Part shown: in pieces, positions 2,465 to 62,028 of the stretch
Position numbering within the stretch: the stretch's first letter is position 1
Layout: each line of letters starts with the position of its first letter
IMG/VR virus record: IMGVR_UViG_3300010429_002123
From: a virus
Lineage: Duplodnaviria; Caudoviricetes
Strand: one strand, 5' to 3'
DNA: 64,000 bases
The notes under the pieces: generated by a model
The model's database searches: none
The model's input: the letters and a program-made list of their open reading frames with translations, nothing else
What the model was told of the DNA's origin: nothing
Made by a program: the position numbers and the translations under genes

Positions 2465-5147
2465 GGAATTAGACCTGCTCATAAGAGCCAGATACCCTTT
2501 GATAAACATTATTTCTCCAGAAACGGCAAGGGTTACTTCTGCTCTGGAGACCATTCTTAAAGACCACGAAGACAAGAAGATGTTTTCATGGGTATTCGGA
2601 GAAGGTATGACCTGCCTGGGAGAAAGAAAAAACCTGACTGTAGACGAAAAAGGGATGCTGGGTAAAGAGCTTGACCCGCTGTTAGTTCTGGATAAAATAG
2701 AAATCTTTGGAAAAAACTCTCTGTTTATTCTAAACGACTTTCACTTGTTCCTGAAAGACACAAGGGTTCTAATCAAATTAAAATCAGTGACTTCCCGGAT
2801 TAGAATGAAAAGGTCTACTTTAGTATTTATTTCTCCCTGTTCTTTCCCGGTTCCTCCCGAACTGAGAGACCATATAACAACTATCTCTTTCCCTCTTCCC
2901 GGAAGTGACGAAATGGAAGGTCTTTACCAAAATACGTTAAGCAGGGTGTGTATTCCGGGACAAAAACTCGATAACATCAGCGACACACTGAAAGAAAAGA
3001 TAGTCAACTCTGCTCTTGGCCTGACTTTTAACCAGGCAGAAAGGGTGCTGTTTAAAGCTCTGACAAAAAACGGAAAGATTTCTGAAGAGGCCATAGACCG
3101 AATATTAGAGGAGAAAAAGCAGTTAATTTCCCTCTCTTCAGCCCTGCAGTTCTTTCCTGCTACGGAGACAATAAAGAACGTAGGAGGTTTATACTCTCTC
3201 AAAGAATGGGTGAGAAGCAGAGAAAAAGTCTTCTCTAAAGAGGCAAGAGAGTATGGTCTGCCCGTTCCTAAGGGTGTGCTTCTCGCAGGAATACCAGGCA
3301 CAGGAAAAAGCCTTGTGGCCAAAGCCGTAGCGGGTATGTGGAAAATGCCTCTTCTAAGACTCGACGTGGGGGCAATTTTCGGCGGACTTGTCGGCCAGTC
3401 TGAAGAAAATGTCAGGACTGCTATAGCTATAAGTGAGGCGGTAGCTCCGTGTTGTTTGTGGGTGGATTAACCCCTAGTAGGTGTGAAAGTTTCTGCTTGA
3501 CTTTACACAAAGAAAGATTGTATACTATTGGAAAAAGGAGACAAGAAAATGAAAACCTGTAAAATGTGCAAAACAGAACTCAAAAAAGAGAAAAATACTT
3601 TTTGCAGTCTGAGTTGCTCAACAAAGTATAGAAATCTTTCTAAGTGTATAAGAGTCAAGAAAGAATGTAAGATGTGTGGCAAAGTGTTAGAACTAACCGA
3701 ATCTTCTTTAAAAGGGAAATTAAATGTCTTTTGTAGTAATGAGTGCAGGCAGGCTTTCTTGAAAAGAAATAACAGGTATGAACCCTGTGAAAACTGTGGC
3801 AAAATTATTGAGATAAACTGGAAAAGAAACAAAGTAAAAACTCCTTTTTGCTCTGTAAGTTGCCATAATGAAAAGGTGAGTAATAAAGTAGAGACAACAT
3901 GTGCTGGTTGTGGGGGCAAAATGATTACCCACAAGTCTCGACTCAGCTATTACAAGAATGTCTACTGCTCTCAAAATTGTTACACTAAAACTGTTCTTGG
4001 GAAGAGAGGAAATCTTCAGGAAAAGTATGAGTTGGTAAGACATAGATTAATGGATTCAGACAATTTCCGACTCTGGAGAATAGGAGTTCTCTCTAAAAAG
4101 CACAGATGTGAGGTGTGTGGGAGTAAAAAGGGTCTTGTGGTTCACCATGTTATCTCGCTCTTTACTCTAGTTTCCACTTACAATAGAGAGTTTTCCCTTT
4201 CAAAAGAAAGTATCGAAAAAGTTATAAGCTCGAAGGAGTTTAATGACGTGTCAAACGGTAAAGTTCTGTGTAAATCATGCCACGTATTAGAACACCGAAA
4301 AATAGTCCCTTATGGAAGTAATTCCATAGAGCAAATCCCGTTAATTGCTGGAAACCCGTTAGAGCCTTCAGTACCTATAAACGGTGACAATCTGAAGGAT
4401 TCGGCAACCAGCAGCGAAGCCTTGAAAAAGGAACGTTCAACGACTAACCCGGAAGGGTGTAGGGTCTAAGTAGACTCGAAAAACGGGACTTCCTAGACGA
4501 AAAGGAAGATGATATAGTCTGGACTCATACGAAAGTATGAGAGGTTACACGGAAACGGTGTAATTGCAACACAATCGGAAATAGAAAAAGGACTCTTTGG
4601 GGCGAGTGCCCGTCTCTCCGTCGGTGACAGCGGAGTAAGTGCCCGAGTAGCTTCTACTATGCTTACGTGGATGCAGGAAAAAACCTCTCCCGTATTTGTA
4701 GTAGCCACGGCTAATGACCTTACAGGGTTCAGCCCGGAGGAAATTCGCATGGGAAGATTTGATGCTGTGTTCTTCCTTGACTTCCCCGACGAAATAGAAA
4801 GAATGGAAATCTTTAAAGTCCATCTCGAAAAGAGAAGACCTGTCATTCATAAGTACGACCTGAAACTTCTGGCTAAACTCACAGAAGGTTTCACAGGAGC
4901 TGAAATAGAACAGGTTATCATAGAAAGTATGCACAACGCCTTTTATGATACGGGCAGAGACTTCACTATGGGTGACATCGAAAAAGTCATAAAGGAAACA
5001 GTTCCCTCCTCTGAAATGATGAGAGATAAAATAGACAAGTTAAGAGAATGGGTCAAGTCAAACAGAGTAAGGACTGCTTCTGCAAGGGAACCGGAAAAAG
5101 TCATGCCCAGTTATATAAAACTTGAACCTTTAAACTTAAGGAACTGA
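2442..5147 (+). CDS. Ycf46-like AAA+ ATPase, spliced join(2442..3467,4578..5147), about 531 aa
   Basis: Walker A GIPGTGKS; Walker B LWVD|EIEKG restored by removing 3468-4577; exon 2 has VFVVATAN and RMGRFD, in frame with the ORF at 4659. Confidence 0.88.
3468..4577 (+). mobile_element. group I intron (1110 nt) carrying an HNH homing endonuclease
   Basis: 5' exon ends in U (GAU) and intron ends in G; core motifs AATTGCTGGAA, AACCAGCAG, GTTCAACGACTA, ATGATATAGTCT at about 4340-4520. Confidence 0.88.
3549..4469 (+). CDS. intron-encoded HNH homing endonuclease with multiple Zn-finger repeats
   Basis: repeated CxxC...FCSxxC units, then CEVCG...VHH...NGKVLCKSCHVLEH; AAGGAG RBS; 3' end overlaps the ribozyme core. 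Confidence 0.8.
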   Translation: MKTCKMCKTELKKEKNTFCSLSCSTKYRNLSKCIRVKKECKMCGKVLELTESSLKGKLNVFCSNECRQAFLKRNNRYEPCENCGKIIEINWKRNKVKTPFCSVSCHNEKVSNKVETTCAGCGGKMITHKSRLSYYKNVYCSQNCYTKTVLGKRGNLQEKYELVRHRLMDSDNFRLWRIGVLSKKHRCEVCGSKKGLVVHHVISLFTLVSTYNREFSLSKESIEKVISSKEFNDVSNGKVLCKSCHVLEHRKIVPYGSNSIEQIPLIAGNPLEPSVPINGDNLKDSATSSEALKKERSTTNPEGCRV

Positions 5148-14342: not shown

Positions 14343-14504
14343 CTTTCCATCTAAACATGTTTCTTCGGAAACCTGGTCTGGAATTTTGTGACCCTCTATT
14401 ATACTTGCTTTACCTCTAACCATGTTTCTTCGGAAACGCAGTAAGGCTGTTTGGTTCATTCAAGGACATCACCGCTTCCCATCTAACCATGTTTCTTCGG
14501 AAAC
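14343..14504 (-). CRISPR. orphan CRISPR mini-array: 3 x 30-bp repeats, 2 spacers (35 and 37 bp)
   Basis: repeats at 14343-14372, 14408-14437, 14475-14504; minus-strand form GTTTCCGAAGAAACATGGTTAGATGG(G/A)AAG with a few variants. Confidence 0.8.
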
Positions 14505-46099: not shown

Positions 46100-48307
46100 A
46101 TGAGGTTGAGAGAACCAGGTTTTAAACCCAAAGAAGCTCAGGAAAGGGCTTTAAGACAACAAAAAATAAAAGCCACACTGTTGCATAACAAACCTCACAC
46201 ACCCGAGCAACTGCATCAGTATATAAAGTCTTTTATGGGGCTTCATCTGGCACGAAATAAAGTGTGCCCACACCACAGTGCTCCTTTTGACTTCGTTTCA
46301 AATATGTTTTTTGAAGCTGGGGAAGATAACTGTGCTGTGCTCGCCTCCAGAGACAGTGGAAAAACTCGCCTCCTTTCTGTGCTGACGGCTCTTAACATAA
46401 AGTTTAAAGCCCACTGCGAGTGTGCTATAGTCGGGGCAATTTTAACACAGGCGAATAAAGGCTTTTCATATCTCCGAGAGTATCACGAAATGCCTTTCCT
46501 CTCTCCTATGGTAGATACTTCGAAAATGGAGTTGACTACCTACACAAATAAATCTAAAGTGGAAATAGTCTGTGGAACTGCTACAGGTGTGAACTCTCCT
46601 CACCCAAACATTCTGCTCTGGGACGAAGTTGACCTCACTCAGTGGGACATTCTCCAACAGGGGTTCTCTATGCCTCACTCCAGTGACTTTGTGAAGTCTC
46701 AAATTGTTCTTGCTTCTACCAGAAAACACGCCGGAGTGTCTACGGGAGCTATGCAGGAAGTTTTAGACAGAATAGAAAATAAAACTATGCCTTTCTGGGA
46801 CGTCTACTCATGGTGTATCTGGGAAGTTATGGAAAAATGCACAGAGTCTTCCTGTGACATCTGTAAGCATATCTTCAGGTTTAATGAGGAGGGTGTGCAG
46901 GAAAGCTTTGCCGACCTGTGTGAGGGGAAGGCCAAACAGGCAGACGGTCACTATCCTTTAAAAGAAGTCTGGAAAAAGTTTACAACCCTTGACGTTCAGG
47001 TGTTTGATAGTGAATGGCTCTGCAGACGACCGGGAAGAGCGGGAAGGATGTTCCCGATGTTTGATGAAAACGTACACGTCATTGATTACGAAAAAAACAT
47101 AAACCTGCCAACGTATGCCGGACAGGATTTCGGCTTTTCTAACCCGGCAGTAACTCTCCTGTGCCAGGTTGACTCCTCAGACAACGCCTACATTTTCGGG
47201 GAAACAGTAGAGAGGGAAAAAACAGAGACCTCTTTGTGCTCTGCAGACGGAGCATGGAGAAACATCTATGAGACTCATTACCCTGTCCTCTGGGCGTGTG
47301 ACCCGGAAAATCCAAGTGCCATTGCTACGATGGTCGAGTCGGGTCTTCCCGCTGTGGGGGTTAGCAACAAACGTCTTGAAAGTATTGCTCTGATAAGACA
47401 TCTCCTACGCCCACCAAACAGCCCAACTCCCAAACTTTTCATAGATAGAAAGTGTTCTCTTCTCCGATGGGAGTTGATGAACTGGCAGAAGGCGAAGAAC
47501 GGAGAAGACGGTGTAAAAAAAGACGACCATTGTCTCGCTGGGGATACCCTGGTAGATACCGTCAAAGGCCAGAAAAAGATAGAAGACCTTGTAGGAAAAA
47601 CGGGAGAAGTTTACTGTTTTGATGAGAGAAATAAAATTAAGACTACCTCACTCTTCCACTCTGTAAGAGAAACCTTTAAAGAAATAGACACCTATGAGAT
47701 AGAACTCGAAGACGGGAGAAAAATAGAAGCCACGGCTGACCATATGTTCCTGACGGATAAAGGGTGGTTACCTTTGTTCTTACTCACAGAGGAAGATTCA
47801 ATCCTTGACATCTCTTCTGGAGAGAGGAAACGAAAAGAGGTAAATGCCGTGGGTTACGTAAAAATCAAGTCGATAAAGAAAAAGCGTAAACAACCTGTGT
47901 ATAACATGCATGTTGATAGTTACCACAACTTCTGTGTGCACAATCTGTTAATTTCGCACAATTCTATAGATGCACTTCGATATATCCTCTTTTATCTTCT
48001 CGGGAAAAATTATGCTCTCTATGGGGGCGGGGAAAAACAGTTTGGCTACGGAGAGCTTGTGGGAAACACTCCTCAAGAAGTCAGAAAAGACCAGGAGAGG
48101 TTGTTCACTCCCGGTGTGACAAAACCGAAAAAAGAACCAAAGTATTTTGACACACAGGGGAACGAACTGGACGCAGACGGTTTCCCTGTTGATGACACTC
48201 AGATAAGCTCTCCTTACACCTCCCTGTGGGCACAGTGCCGGGAGATGTTTAATACACATCAAGGGGTATTCGATTTTAACCCCGGACTTCCTCCAGAACC
48301 TTTCTAA
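46100..48307 (+). CDS. terL: terminase large subunit with mini-intein
   Basis: ASRDSGKT, LLWDE, ASTR, GQDFGFSNP, DDH|SIDALRY. Confidence 0.88.
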   Translation: MRLREPGFKPKEAQERALRQQKIKATLLHNKPHTPEQLHQYIKSFMGLHLARNKVCPHHSAPFDFVSNMFFEAGEDNCAVLASRDSGKTRLLSVLTALNIKFKAHCECAIVGAILTQANKGFSYLREYHEMPFLSPMVDTSKMELTTYTNKSKVEIVCGTATGVNSPHPNILLWDEVDLTQWDILQQGFSMPHSSDFVKSQIVLASTRKHAGVSTGAMQEVLDRIENKTMPFWDVYSWCIWEVMEKCTESSCDICKHIFRFNEEGVQESFADLCEGKAKQADGHYPLKEVWKKFTTLDVQVFDSEWLCRRPGRAGRMFPMFDENVHVIDYEKNINLPTYAGQDFGFSNPAVTLLCQVDSSDNAYIFGETVEREKTETSLCSADGAWRNIYETHYPVLWACDPENPSAIATMVESGLPAVGVSNKRLESIALIRHLLRPPNSPTPKLFIDRKCSLLRWELMNWQKAKNGEDGVKKDDHCLAGDTLVDTVKGQKKIEDLVGKTGEVYCFDERNKIKTTSLFHSVRETFKEIDTYEIELEDGRKIEATADHMFLTDKGWLPLFLLTEEDSILDISSGERKRKEVNAVGYVKIKSIKKKRKQPVYNMHVDSYHNFCVHNLLISHNSIDALRYILFYLLGKNYALYGGGEKQFGYGELVGNTPQEVRKDQERLFTPGVTKPKKEPKYFDTQGNELDADGFPVDDTQISSPYTSLWAQCREMFNTHQGVFDFNPGLPPEPF
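47531..47962 (+). mobile_element. mini-intein (144 aa) in the TerL nuclease motif
   Basis: CLAGDTLV, ATADH, VYNMHVDSYHNF, SHN|S. Confidence 0.9.
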
Positions 48308-56877: not shown

Positions 56878-57019
56878 AATGTGCAAAAAGATTTTTAGAT
56901 AAACTGTCGTTGGTGAGGGTGAAACTCTTATGCCATAACCGAAAGAACCTTCTGAAAAATAGTTAAATTATTTTTACAAAAAGTATTGACAAGTATATAG
57001 GATTATGGTATATTATTAT

Positions 57020-57645
57020 CAGAGGGTGAAACAACGACAGGCGGGTTAAGGTGGCCTCGGTGAACAGAAGCCGGGTGACTGCGGTAAACTCCCTCAAGTA
57101 ACGCAGACGGTCTTGCGAGACCGGGAGGTTCGAGTCCTCACTGCCTGTAAGAATGGTTGGCCGATTACCAAAAGGCGGCAAGTGGGATGAGCCCTCGGAC
57201 AACAACAGCCGTGGGCGGGAAAATCAAGGAAAGGAGTGATGCCGATGGGCAGGGACATAGGGACAGAACCCTGTGAGAGCAAGGGTGTCCAGGAAGGTCG
57301 AGGTAGACCGGTTGACCGTGAGCAACCAAAAATCTCTCTGAACCTCGACTAAGAAAAAAAGGGTCAAACTCCTAAAAGAAGAGATAGACCGCTACCCTCA
57401 CGGAAGACTGCAAACCCACAGCACGTGTCTGGTAGACAGACCCTGTGTGAAGGTGGTAAAGACTGCTACACCTAGACTTACGGGTTACTGGTTTCCCTAA
57501 TAAAATAAACCAGTGTAGGCCGGGAACGAGAGTTAGCCCTCTCTCCCTCGACGCTCTCACAGAGAGACAGGCCGAAGTGAAAAGGGCGAAAATCTCAGCC
57601 ACCAGGAAGAGGAGACTCTTCCTGGGCGGACTGATTCAGTGAAGG
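57020..57645 (+). ncRNA. candidate large structured ncRNA (about 630 nt) with tRNA-like 5' domain
   Basis: behind conserved promoter 56971; GC-richer than flanks; no + strand ORF in the track; many hairpins; T-loop GAGG-TTCGAGT-CCTC. Confidence 0.6.
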
Positions 57646-57654
57646 AGAAAGAAA

Positions 57655-59283: not shown

Positions 59284-59295
59284 AGGTCTAGCCTA

Positions 59296-59339
59296 TTTTT
59301 TCAAAAAGTATTGACAAGTATGCTGTCGTGTAGTATACT
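59296..59339 (+). promoter_or_regulatory. conserved phage promoter driving iscB
   Basis: TTTTTCAAAAAGTA-TTGACA-17 bp-TATACT. Confidence 0.75.
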
Positions 59340-59405
59340 GAAAAAGTGAAGCAGAAATAGAATGTTTCGTTTCAATAGTCATTTTGCGAAAAAGGAGTTA
59401 GTAAA

Positions 59406-61010
59406 ATGGTATTTGTTATAGATAAGAAAAAGAAGCCTCTATCTATGTGCCATGAGGCCAGAGCAAGAAAACTTCTTGATAGCGGGAAAGCTCTGGTGGT
59501 AAGTCACTACCCCTTTGTCCTCCGCTTGAAAGAAGAAGTTACGCATGAAATAACCGGAGACTACTCTATAAAAATTGACCCCGGTTCTTCTTTCACCGGA
59601 ATATCCATTCTAAACGGAAACGAAATAACATTCTGTGCTGAAATTGCTCATAAAACTTCTACTATAATTGAAAGAAACACAGAGAGAGCTCAATTTAGAA
59701 GAGGAAGAAGAGCAAGAAATACTCGTTACAGACCTCCCCGGTTTGATAACAGAAAGAATAAAAAACCTGGCTGGCTGGCTCCGAGTATGGTCTCCAGAAT
59801 AGACAATATAGTTAACTGGGTGAAAAAGTTCATGGCACTGTGCCCGATAAAAAAGATAGTCTTTGAAGACGTGAAATTTGACACTCAGCTTCTGATGAAC
59901 CCAAACATAAAGGGAAAAGAATATCAGCAGGGACCTCTTTACAGAATGGAAAGACGGGAATACCTCCGGGAAAAAACAGGCTTTAAGTGTGCCTATTGTA
60001 AAAAATCAGGAACAGAAACATTTCTGCAGGTTGAGCACGTAACCCCTCGTAGCAGAGGAGGAAGTGACAGAATATCTAACCTGACCCTGGCCTGTAAGCC
60101 CTGTAATGACCTGAAAGGAACTAGAACTGCCACGGAGTTTGGTTTCCCCGAAGTTCAAAAAGCAGTTTCTCTCCCACTGAAAAACGCTGCCGTTATGAAC
60201 TCTTCAAGGAAAGCTACTCTGAAGAGGCTAAAAGAACTTGGCTTGCCCGTGACAACAGGCAGCGGAGGACTGACTGCCTATAACAGGAAAAAACAAAACT
60301 TACCAAAAACTCATTACTTTGATGCCTCCTGTGTAGGCTTTATGGACGAAGACGAAAAATTAGTAATAAAAACCGGTAAAGTCCTTAATATAAAAGCCGA
60401 AGGGAGAGGTGTTTACAGACGAACTCAGGTAACGGCGGGAGTAAAATTCAAACTCTCCTCTATAAAAAAAGACCTGGAACAATTAGTGCCCTTCTCCAGA
60501 GTGGAAAAAGAGATGAGAAAATTAAAGATTATAGTAGAAACAGAAAAAGTGAACAAAAAAGGAGTCAAAAAAGCAAGCTATAAGACTTCAGAAGAAGAAC
60601 TGACCCGAAAAAGACTTGAGAGGCTGTTAAGCCGGGTAAAAGTCCCTAAAGAACAGATAAAAGACCTGGCAACAAAAGCAAGAAGCAAAAAAGAAGTAAA
60701 AGGCAAGACTGTAAAAACTTTTGAGGGTAGAGAAGTGAAGTTGCTGGATTTACCCGGCTCAGTTAAGTCCTTCAGACCCCGCAAGGCTTATTACTTCGGG
60801 TTTAAAAAGAGAGACCTGGTAAAAACAAAAGATTATGGAGTTCAAAGTATAAAAAGTGTGAGGTCATCAGGGTCATTCACGCTCGGTAATGAAAAAACCA
60901 GTTCTTATAAATATTGTAAAATATTACAGAGGTGTGACGGGTTTTCCTATAGTCTCAGTAACCTTACTTTAGAAGAGCCTGCTCGGCAATTAGCCGAGCG
61001 ACCCTCATGA
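59406..61010 (+). CDS. iscB: IscB RNA-guided endonuclease (534 aa) with C-terminal insertion
   Basis: PLMP-like KPLSMC..ARARKLL, RuvC-I IDPGS, Arg-rich bridge helix, RuvC-II FEDVKFD, HNH CAYC..EHV.PRSRGGS...NL..AC..CN, RuvC-III HYFDA, GF...DLVK. Confidence 0.93.
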   Translation: MVFVIDKKKKPLSMCHEARARKLLDSGKALVVSHYPFVLRLKEEVTHEITGDYSIKIDPGSSFTGISILNGNEITFCAEIAHKTSTIIERNTERAQFRRGRRARNTRYRPPRFDNRKNKKPGWLAPSMVSRIDNIVNWVKKFMALCPIKKIVFEDVKFDTQLLMNPNIKGKEYQQGPLYRMERREYLREKTGFKCAYCKKSGTETFLQVEHVTPRSRGGSDRISNLTLACKPCNDLKGTRTATEFGFPEVQKAVSLPLKNAAVMNSSRKATLKRLKELGLPVTTGSGGLTAYNRKKQNLPKTHYFDASCVGFMDEDEKLVIKTGKVLNIKAEGRGVYRRTQVTAGVKFKLSSIKKDLEQLVPFSRVEKEMRKLKIIVETEKVNKKGVKKASYKTSEEELTRKRLERLLSRVKVPKEQIKDLATKARSKKEVKGKTVKTFEGREVKLLDLPGSVKSFRPRKAYYFGFKKRDLVKTKDYGVQSIKSVRSSGSFTLGNEKTSSYKYCKILQRCDGFSYSLSNLTLEEPARQLAERPS

Positions 61011-61015
61011 AACGT

Positions 61016-61488
61016 GTTTCAGTAATCAGTTTGCGAGACATAACTATGAAACTCAGTATAAATGTAAAACTTATGAAGTATTCGAGGTTTCAGTAATCAG
61101 TTTGCGAGACATAACTATGAAACAAAGGAGATGATAGAAATGATTACAAAGTTTTTCTTGGGGTTTCAGTAACCAGTTAGCGAGACATAGCTACGAAACG
61201 AAAGCAAAAGACCTGCGAGTACAGGCGTTGTGTTTCAGTAACCGGTTTGTGGAACATAGCTATGAAACAAAGTTTGATAGATAACTTTGCAGGATTCACT
61301 ATCAGTTTCAGTAATCAGTTTGCGGAACATAGCTATGAAAAGGCGAAAGCCACAAAGTTTTTCAGTAATTTTGTTCTGTTTCAGTAATCAGTTTGCGAAA
61401 CATAGCTATGAAACGGAGACCTTGACCTGGGAGACATAAGAGACAGTTTCAGTTTCAGTAATCAGTTTGTGGAACATAGCTATGAAAC
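61016..61488 (+). CRISPR. CRISPR array: 7 x 37-bp repeats, 6 spacers (34, 39, 32, 36, 36, 37 bp)
   Basis: consensus GTTTCAGTAATCAGTTTGCGRRACATAGCTATGAAAC starting at 61016, 61087, 61163, 61232, 61305, 61378, 61452. Confidence 0.95.
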
Positions 61489-61608
61489 CGCTAGAAAAAG
61501 TGTTAAAAACTGGCGTGATGGCTAAGTCTAGAAATTCAATTTCAGGTCAAGTTTTCGCAAATCGTATTTCTGCTGAAAAATAGCCTCGATTTGCGAGAAT
61601 TTAAAAGT

Positions 61609-61926
61609 GTTTCAGTAATCAGTTAAAGTGTTTCATAGCTATGTTTCGCAAACTTTGAGTTGTAGTGTAATAATAAAATACGACTCATTATGAAACCAGA
61701 CATAAGCCGAGTGGCTACGTTAGAGAGGTCAAGACACCCACGGATGCTTCCTCAGTCTGTGGCTCTGTCCGAGATGTTTAACCGAGATTGTGGTTACAAT
61801 TACAGTGACATGGCGTGGAAAGCCTCTTTAACATTGTCGAGGGGAGATTTTCTTGGTGTAAACTGAGAAAGCGTTACCTGTCTTGTGGTAGAGATACTGT
61901 GAGGCAGAGATTTTCCGAAAGGAAAT
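61609..61926 (+). ncRNA. omegaRNA (HEARO-like) scaffold with tracrRNA-like anti-repeat 5' end
   Basis: anti-repeat at 61630-61654 and 61688-61696, then CCAGAC.TAAGC, GCTACGTT, GACACC..GGATGCTTCCTCAGTC..GCTCTG, AACATTGTCGAGGGGAGA motifs typical of IscB omegaRNAs; terminal TTTCC-GAAA-GGAAA hairpin. Confidence 0.88.
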
Positions 61927-62028
61927 AAAAAAGAGTTAGCTTATTTTTACAAAAAGTATTGACAAGTATGCCTGACTATGTTATACTATTTTTAGTGAAA
62001 GAAATAAAAAACGAAGGAGGAACATAGG

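Follow-up and report, generated by a model that had tools for sequence, protein, structure and literature searches.

Can the guide RNA of an IscB nuclease be divided, as that of Cas9 is, between the units of a CRISPR array and a separate scaffold? The question is raised by a cassette in a phage from sludge digesters (Caudoviricetes; IMG/VR record IMGVR_UViG_3300010429_002123), of which we analysed a stretch of 64,000 nucleotides (nt), hereafter the window. All on the + strand and in this order, the cassette holds a promoter, iscB, an array, a linker, a half repeat, and an anti-repeat that runs into an omegaRNA scaffold (Table 1). These parts are conserved in a clade of related loci, the RNA strands that meet at their junction covary, and the cassette is expressed in situ. 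That it is a CRISPR-associated IscB appears to us nearly beyond doubt. For the fuller reading, a phage-borne system whose cassette, docking and RNA-guided cutting operate as proposed below, we estimate a probability of about 0.72.

Table 1. Features of the cassette and RNA contigs mapped to it. Positions are those of the window.
Feature	Position	Strand	Basis or remarks
Phage promoter copy heading the cassette	59289-59339	+	-35 TTGACA 59311-59316, 17-nt spacing, -10 TATACT 59334-59339
Degenerate repeat-like piece in the iscB 5' untranslated region	59369-59395	+	Direct-repeat copy 59366-59410, 60% over 45 nt; reading of the sequence
iscB, 534 amino acids (aa)	59406-61010	+	PLMP-type N-terminus, split RuvC, HNH with CxxC...CxxC zinc ribbon, C-terminal beta domain
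Lys/Glu-rich insertion in IscB, ~105 aa (residues ~342-447)	60429-60746	+	Alignment A1; between RuvC-III motif and C-terminal domain
CRISPR-like array, 7 x 37-nt repeats, 6 unique spacers	61016-61488	+	Repeat search, k-mer comparison
Linker, ~118 nt, clade-conserved, not a spacer	61489-61608	+	Repeat comparison, clade alignment
Half repeat, 16 nt (repeat positions 1-16)	61609-61624	+	5 nt before the anti-repeat
Anti-repeat, 5' end of scaffold	61630-61654	+	Exact reverse complement of 61390-61414 (repeat 6 positions 13-37)
omegaRNA/HEARO scaffold, tracrRNA-like partner	61630-61852	+	Rfam RF02033, full length, model positions 1-211
Second hairpin of guide-adaptor region	61657-61686	+	Cofolding, clade alignment
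P1 3' strand UGAAAC	61691-61696	+	Directly 5' of conserved CAGAC; pairs with repeat positions 1-6
Scaffold 3' tail, two hairpins (~61879-61907, 61914-61927)	61853-61935	+	Alignment A2, columns ~400-480
X2 RNA contig, iscB 5' half			Depth 11.6; flanking genes 0-6
X2 RNA contig, iscB 3' end into array	60548-61430		Depth 154; flanking genes 0-6
X2 RNA contig	61401-61837		Depth 1254; flanking genes 0-6
X3 RNA contig	61064-61837		Depth 37; flanking genes 0-3
X4 RNA contig	61140-61841		Depth 16; flanking genes 0

The product of iscB scores 372.9 bits against the NCBIfam model guided_IscB (NF040563; cut-off 175), matches the Pfam family RRXRR (PF14239, 1e-63) together with HNH families, and has IscB structures as its best matches in the PDB. 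Its N-terminus, MVFVIDKKKKPLSMCH, aligns with the PLMP-type N-termini of other IscBs. The clade alignment shows no variation at residues D58, E154, H211, N234, H303 and D306 or at the four zinc cysteines, and the RuvC and HNH catalytic motifs are, judging from sequence, intact, as an initial annotation of this DNA had stated. The protein does not classify as a Cas9, reaching 44.7 bits with the Cas9d model (cut-off 375) and 24.4 with Csn1 (cut-off 100). None of its seven clade relatives has the Lys/Glu-rich insertion, which is predicted to be helical at low confidence; the IscB model, built from an alignment of eight sequences with a mean predicted local distance difference test score of 54.5, is too poor to interpret it.

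The array starts 5 bases past the iscB stop codon. Its repeats begin at 61016, 61087, 61163, 61232, 61305, 61378 and 61452, and the spacers between them measure 34, 39, 32, 36, 36 and 37 nt, in order; no two are alike beyond 12 nt. We thus reproduced the seven 37-bp repeats with unique spacers annotated earlier, and the stretch has what characterises a CRISPR array, i.e. three or more repeats of constant length and unique spacers of similar length. Repeat positions 1-10 are identical in all seven copies. Spacers 2 and 5 share the exact 12-mer ACAAAGTTTTTC (61146-61157 and 61352-61363), either by chance or as guides from related targets.

Between the array and the RNA scaffold the initial annotation had left a gap of 120 bp. 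The stretch is there (118 nt) but it is no mere gap: it is conserved in the clade and contains a hairpin at 61549-61602 (61549-61564 with 61587-61602), whose arms are a degenerate anti-repeat-like and a repeat-like sequence. Such a hairpin also occurs in a related locus (L005:2572-2622), and in another (L147) its repeat-like arm can pair instead with the real anti-repeat, so that alternative linker pairings gating the scaffold are conceivable. The scaffold itself was recovered by a model search for omegaRNAs, which returned a single, full-length HEARO match in the window (92.6 bits, gathering score 83; E 8e-19), on the + strand and in the downstream position that had been claimed for it. A canonical HEARO RNA lies directly upstream of iscB and has a single 5' guide, whereas this one, the only match, lies 620 nt downstream of the iscB stop codon. 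At its 5' end the anti-repeat is, as annotated, complementary to positions 13-37 of repeat 6 at 25/25 positions; the 25-mer is found in the window only in the seven repeats and, inverted, at 61630, against a chance expectation of 0 matches. The inserted hairpin that follows was confirmed too, and while its sequence differs in every relative, its pairing is retained.

The locus is not a one-off system. When 58 IscBs were placed in a maximum-likelihood tree, the window protein and seven relatives grouped as a clade with 100/100 support; the closest of these (P0002-P0007) are 57-63% identical to it. An array is present in every member with enough upstream sequence; the sister group, which is canonical, has none, and array-bearing IscBs elsewhere in the tree are scattered over at least 5 lineages. 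The clade thus comprises at least 8 loci, and where their flanks are readable the relatives lie among phage genes (RNA ligase, ThyX, deoxynucleoside kinase (dNK), DNA polymerase A). Close relatives came up in alignment-based scans; a single-sequence scan of IMG/VR returned none, no DNA match of the locus was found in the phage collection, and among GTDB species genomes there was no clade member, the best match (54% identical) being from a metagenome-assembled genome of Eubacteriaceae. In other IscB lineages, 39-46% identical to the window protein, scaffold and iscB are immediately preceded by 2-8 CRISPR-like repeats (L017:2284-2671; L099:1319-1521; L100; L102; L022; and L206, L208, L213 and L218 at ~1675-2159), and four of the chromosomes that carry such array-bearing IscBs belong to Poribacteria.

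How the repeat and the scaffold meet is the core of the question. In the Rfam alignment, the canonical closing stem, P1, is formed by the scaffold's own 5' end, GUUUCAUA, and UAUGAAAC (61689-61696). The repeat starts with the same GUUUCA as this 5' end, and therefore the window alone cannot tell which of the two strands closes P1. When a repeat was cofolded with 61630-61700, the gain was -29.4 kcal/mol and the two strands met in a three-way junction: the P1 3' strand takes up repeat positions 1-6, the anti-repeat takes up 13-37, 7-12 stay free, and the second hairpin forms the third arm. This is the topology that had been proposed, with the 5' end of the repeat completing P1 and its 3' part on the 5' anti-repeat, except that P1 had been drawn as 9 bp with a bulged G7: 6 bp are conserved in the relatives, and the 9-bp form exists only in the window. 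The same junction was obtained in all six analysable loci, and cognate pairs reach about -29 kcal/mol compared to -9 to -11 for non-cognate pairs of the window and L005. Position 4 of P1 covaries on both sides (U-A in the window, A-U in five relatives), and the long repeat:anti-repeat helix shows compensatory changes at 9 positions across loci. Outside the window, the two candidate strands can be told apart. Against the P1 3' strand, the 5' end of the repeat forms 6/6 pairs in L005 and L001, but that of the scaffold itself only 5/6 (L005) and 4/6 (L001), and a direct reading of L147, L067 and L069 reveals no GTTACA-type cis strand beside the anti-repeat. Lacking a matching strand of their own, these five loci must have P1 completed by an array repeat. 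As modelled, the RNA of the window would look like a canonical omegaRNA whose first hairpin has been opened at its loop. In one of the other array-bearing lineages (L017), the repeat 5' end GUCUCA pairs perfectly with UGAGAC before CCAGAC, a third variant of P1.

The motif at the head of the cassette, TTGACA-17-TATACT (59311-59339), is a phage promoter, as the initial annotation had recognised, and a recurrent one: it occurs 7 times in the window, every time on the + strand. A copy at 61937-61971 (35 nt, 94% identical) heads the next transcription unit, and the cassette is therefore flanked on both sides by copies of the phage promoter. The iscB 5' untranslated region is short, ~60 nt. Inside the linker no promoter for the scaffold reached the threshold of the promoter scan; a weak TTGCGA-17-AGTAAT at 61591-61619 was spotted by eye only. 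We detected the locus in one anaerobic-digester DNA run, which may be where this DNA came from, and in three activated-sludge metatranscriptomes (X2-X4), mapping them as assembled contigs. The X2 contig over iscB begins at 59357, just past the promoter copy, and the three contigs over the scaffold stop within 5 nt of each other (61837-61841), just past the 3' strand of the pseudoknot, a weak hint of a 3' RNA end there. Depth over array and scaffold exceeds that of the flanks 10-100 times (Table 1), from which it follows that both are abundant RNA in nature; read-through from iscB into the array also exists.

Such contigs carry no strand, and the - strand has weak terminator-like sites (61226 and 61598), so one may wonder whether the array is transcribed from the - strand, or is merely adjacent and unrelated to IscB. 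We find this scarcely credible. A - strand repeat RNA would have the same sense as the anti-repeat and could not pair with it, and in the five GTTACA-type loci it would not match the 3' strand of P1 at its own 5' end either; together these points rule out - strand CRISPR RNAs (crRNAs). The promoters of the relatives read the + strand, and array and IscB are co-inherited across the clade. Wobble pairing of repeat variants had been advanced earlier as an argument for + strand crRNAs. The effect is real, with 9/14 variant instances in positions 13-37 staying paired as + strand RNA compared to 3/14 as - strand RNA, but it lends only modest support.

We propose that one phage promoter would drive iscB, then the array and then the scaffold from the + strand. 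The scaffold would have no dedicated guide, its 5' end being the anti-repeat, and a spacer-repeat unit would dock on it twice: repeat positions 1-6 on UGAAAC, rebuilding P1 next to the guide, and positions 13-37 on the anti-repeat, in the place of the first hairpin of a canonical omegaRNA. The product would be an omegaRNA split at the loop of this hairpin, just as a crRNA paired with a trans-activating CRISPR RNA (tracrRNA) relates to a single-guide RNA. The guide would be the final ~16-20 nt of the spacer, IscB would then cut matching DNA next to a target-adjacent motif (TAM), and host RNase III would probably trim the 25-bp duplex. We consider the docking, as drawn, likely. That crRNA and tracrRNA are truly separate molecules and all spacers are in use is possible, at best an even bet. 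The most complete version, a two-RNA IscB in which separate crRNAs dock on a tracrRNA-like omegaRNA, RNase III does the trimming, every spacer is used and the array is renewed without cas1 or cas2 in cis, is a tentative and rather doubtful proposal.

Several observations weigh against this model. The repeats of the window, which differ among themselves at up to 5 positions, are more degenerate and its spacers (32-39 nt) less uniform than those of the relatives, which could mean that the array is decaying. In the subgroup formed by L001, L147, L067 and L069 the anti-repeat is shorter and bulged, and cofolding gains only -9 to -14 kcal/mol; that of the window is long and perfect, as in L005. Assembled contigs give neither the ends nor the processed forms of an RNA, and flanks left uncovered by them are not evidence of silence. 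Our searches turned up no protospacer for any of the spacers, so that both targeting and function are putative. The scaffold and the last repeat share a transcript, and the half repeat offers a possible cis strand for P1. The latter two points lead to an alternative that we regard as unlikely, in which the RNA is only ever one molecule, a natural single guide, and the upstream units are little used or vestigial. Either spacer 6 and repeat 7 would fold back over a 141-nt linker onto the anti-repeat, as in the non-coding RNA (ncRNA) of DelIscB, which was characterised and engineered as one RNA with repeat and anti-repeat forming a long hairpin (PMC12660989), or the half repeat, which carries a P1 strand, would close P1 and leave a fixed guide from the linker. 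The degeneracy of the window repeats would fit, and so would the depth of the X2 contig that runs from spacer 6 into the scaffold, ~8 times that of the upstream-array contig. Yet mean contig depth cannot resolve RNA species, and a scaffold-to-unit ratio of ~7:1 also fits equal use of the units. Moreover, the relatives keep 2-8 near-identical repeats with spacers that are completely exchanged, something one would not expect of dead units, positions 1-10 do not vary in 7/7 window copies, and the half repeat is absent from the relatives in the clade alignment.

Spacer turnover is seen between L001 and L147, whose IscBs (P0002 and P0003) share 90% identity. The two loci hardly differ in linker and scaffold, where two stems show compensatory changes, and yet their 2 and 6 spacers have none in common; L067 and L069 likewise have no spacer in common, nor have any two loci of the clade. 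Near-identical scaffolds without common spacers indicate that the arrays turn over, i.e. they are dynamic, with spacers differing between close relatives. One X2 RNA contig joins 61015 to 61087, omitting repeat 1 and spacer 1, a weak hint of array change; it reflects either a six-repeat population variant or the collapse of repeats 1 and 2, which are identical, during assembly. No gene for adaptation was found nearby. The claimed absence of tnpA, cas1 and cas2 holds among the 40 open reading frames (ORFs) searched with PHROGs or Pfam, all within the window and none below 120 aa, which yielded no cas4 either, and the Pfam gene tables of the relatives' contigs contain no cas1, cas2, cas4 or tnpA. 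Complete turnover with no adaptation gene nearby could be explained if the array were borrowed from, or fed by, a class 1 CRISPR system of the host, whose Cas1-Cas2 would install the spacers while the IscB scaffold adapted to the repeat. The tight spacers of the relatives (35-39 nt, mostly 36-37) next to 37-nt repeats speak for this, and so do the repeat 3' ends, ATGAAAC or ATTGAAAC, which resemble the 3' handle of many class 1 repeats. We nevertheless judge this origin improbable. The 5' end of the repeat occupies the place of the 5' P1 strand of a canonical omegaRNA, which points to an origin from the omegaRNA itself, and a pattern search for the repeat family in host arrays, in 3 and then in 401 genomes of one phylum, gave one single match with 3 mismatches, which we judged to be due to chance.

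Gene order sets the window apart within its clade. In the relatives a sigma-70 type promoter lies upstream of the array and reads, on one strand, an array of 2-8 repeats of 36-37 nt, the conserved linker, the anti-repeat with its scaffold, and iscB; only in the window does iscB come first. As the outgroups and the other seven clade members have their RNA genes upstream, the order of the window is most simply a rearrangement. Two features agree with this: the degenerate repeat piece in the iscB 5' untranslated region is likely a scar of the event that moved iscB ahead of the array, and the scaffold 3' tail still has the two hairpins that are homologous to the segment leading into the iscB ribosome-binding site in the relatives, although here the next phage promoter follows. 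The insertion site differs as well, since the cassette lies beside a dNK/Thy1 module in L001, L005 and L146 and 25 kb from dNK and Thy1 in the window. That related phages carry it in different places, and that two promoter copies bracket it, speaks for a selfish homing cassette, whose nuclease, like the IscB and TnpB of transposons, would cut related phage genomes free of it so that recombination copies the cassette in, the array widening the range of sites. Work by Meers et al. in 2023 is said to give OMEGA nucleases a role in transposon retention, which we count in favour of homing. We still hold this explanation to be rather unlikely: no spacer matches any of the related phage loci we fetched, at the DNA or protein level, no empty-site allele was found among the loci compared, and no TnpA was found in the neighbour genes tested. 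Neither in the window nor in the relatives did these neighbour genes yield a Y1_Tnp match that would place the cassette in an IS200/IS605 element; transposon ends were not analysed.

What the spacers are directed against was sought at three scales. The 29 spacers from 7 loci gave only chance-level matches with the window and all fetched loci (blastn-short and tblastx). The whole array, compared with 50,697 phage records and 72,556 plasmids, had nothing below E 0.04, and that match straddles a repeat. Exact 20-mers of spacers 3, 4 and 6 had 0 matches in IMG/VR. The multi-target weapon suggested by the initial annotation is thus pure inference, for which the spacer search found no match. The likeliest role would be to combat rival phages or other mobile elements, or else to let the cassette home.

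The locus is of a known type, a CRISPR-associated IscB, and neither a new category nor a new mechanism. IscBs associated with CRISPR arrays but devoid of adaptation genes were described in 2021 (Altae-Tran et al., Science 374:57, as summarised in PMC12660989), and a guide RNA with repeat and anti-repeat joined to an omegaRNA scaffold is published for DelIscB (Zhang et al. 2025; PMC12660989), which removes the novelty once attached to a Cas9-like, dual-RNA IscB. The same source calls open whether the guide RNA of CRISPR-associated IscBs is processed into crRNA-like and tracrRNA-like parts. With its array beside IscB, a 25/25 anti-repeat, a junction found in six loci and covariation, the window locus is of the DelIscB type in its architecture. 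Both have a compact IscB next to an array, without cas1 or cas2, and a repeat/anti-repeat helix in place of the first hairpin, and the layout of DelIscB, with array and ncRNA upstream of the ORF, is that of the clade relatives. The window departs from it in having array and scaffold downstream of iscB (in the order effector, array, tracr-like RNA), and in its huge-phage setting, conserved 118-nt linker, half repeat and IscB insertion of ~105 aa.

Canonical OMEGA systems (OgeuIscB, KraIscB; RF02033) share with the window the protein family and an RNA core that extends from the P1 3' strand up to and including the pseudoknot. They have a single cis guide and an upstream omegaRNA, whereas the window has an array, would obtain its P1 5' strand from the repeats and has no TnpA that we found. 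HEARO scores are 93-96 bits in the clade compared to 118-173 in most canonical phage loci. Type II systems (II-D, Cas9d) resemble the window in their HNH and RuvC effector, a repeat:anti-repeat duplex, a guide that lies 5' of the repeat, and a layout in which effector, array and tracr follow in turn. Unlike Cas9, the window protein has a PLMP-type N-terminus and no REC lobe, and the locus keeps a large omegaRNA core and has no adaptation module. IscB and HEARO in viral contigs are known as well: in the study of Aliaga Goltsman et al. (2022, PMC9755519), more than 16% of the HEARO-encoding fragments were viral or prophage-derived. Its systems are described there as lacking the CRISPR association that the clade of the window has.

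The rest of the window is that of a large phage, with PHROGs and Pfam matches to ribonucleotide reductase, large terminase, Ant, ThyX, dNK, a radical SAM protein and methyltransferases. Some of its other features deserve mention. Directly behind a promoter copy at 56978-57010 lies a stretch of ~640 nt (57015-57650, +) that is ORF-poor and GC-richer. An X2 RNA contig covers 57233-57466 at a depth of 338 (with sequencing adapter at 57466), depths in X3 and X4 are 8.9 and 6.2, and the flanks are near 0. The stretch has no Rfam match at E<=1 and no transfer RNA or transfer-messenger RNA, and its folding z-score is -0.54. It would seem to be an abundant phage ncRNA of no recognised family. A group I intron lies at 4266-4541 (+; Rfam RF00028, 90.2 bits, gathering score 50), and the k-mer scan picked up a further array-like repeat near 14356. 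The large terminase ORF (46100-48307, +; 735 aa) has PHROG matches broken into pieces and may contain an inserted element.

To what was known of CRISPR-associated IscBs, this locus adds a layout rearranged into a Cas9-like gene order, a phage clade with strong support, and expression in situ. The clade provides comparative evidence on the splitting of the guide, as five relatives need array repeats for P1 and the pairing partners covary. Given its high transcription in real sludge communities, the cassette is a convenient natural system for testing the origin of the Cas9 dual guide from omegaRNA, and the insertion in its IscB may interest engineers of compact editors. If the two-RNA reading is true, this huge phage would harbour a living intermediate of the split of an omegaRNA into crRNA and tracrRNA.

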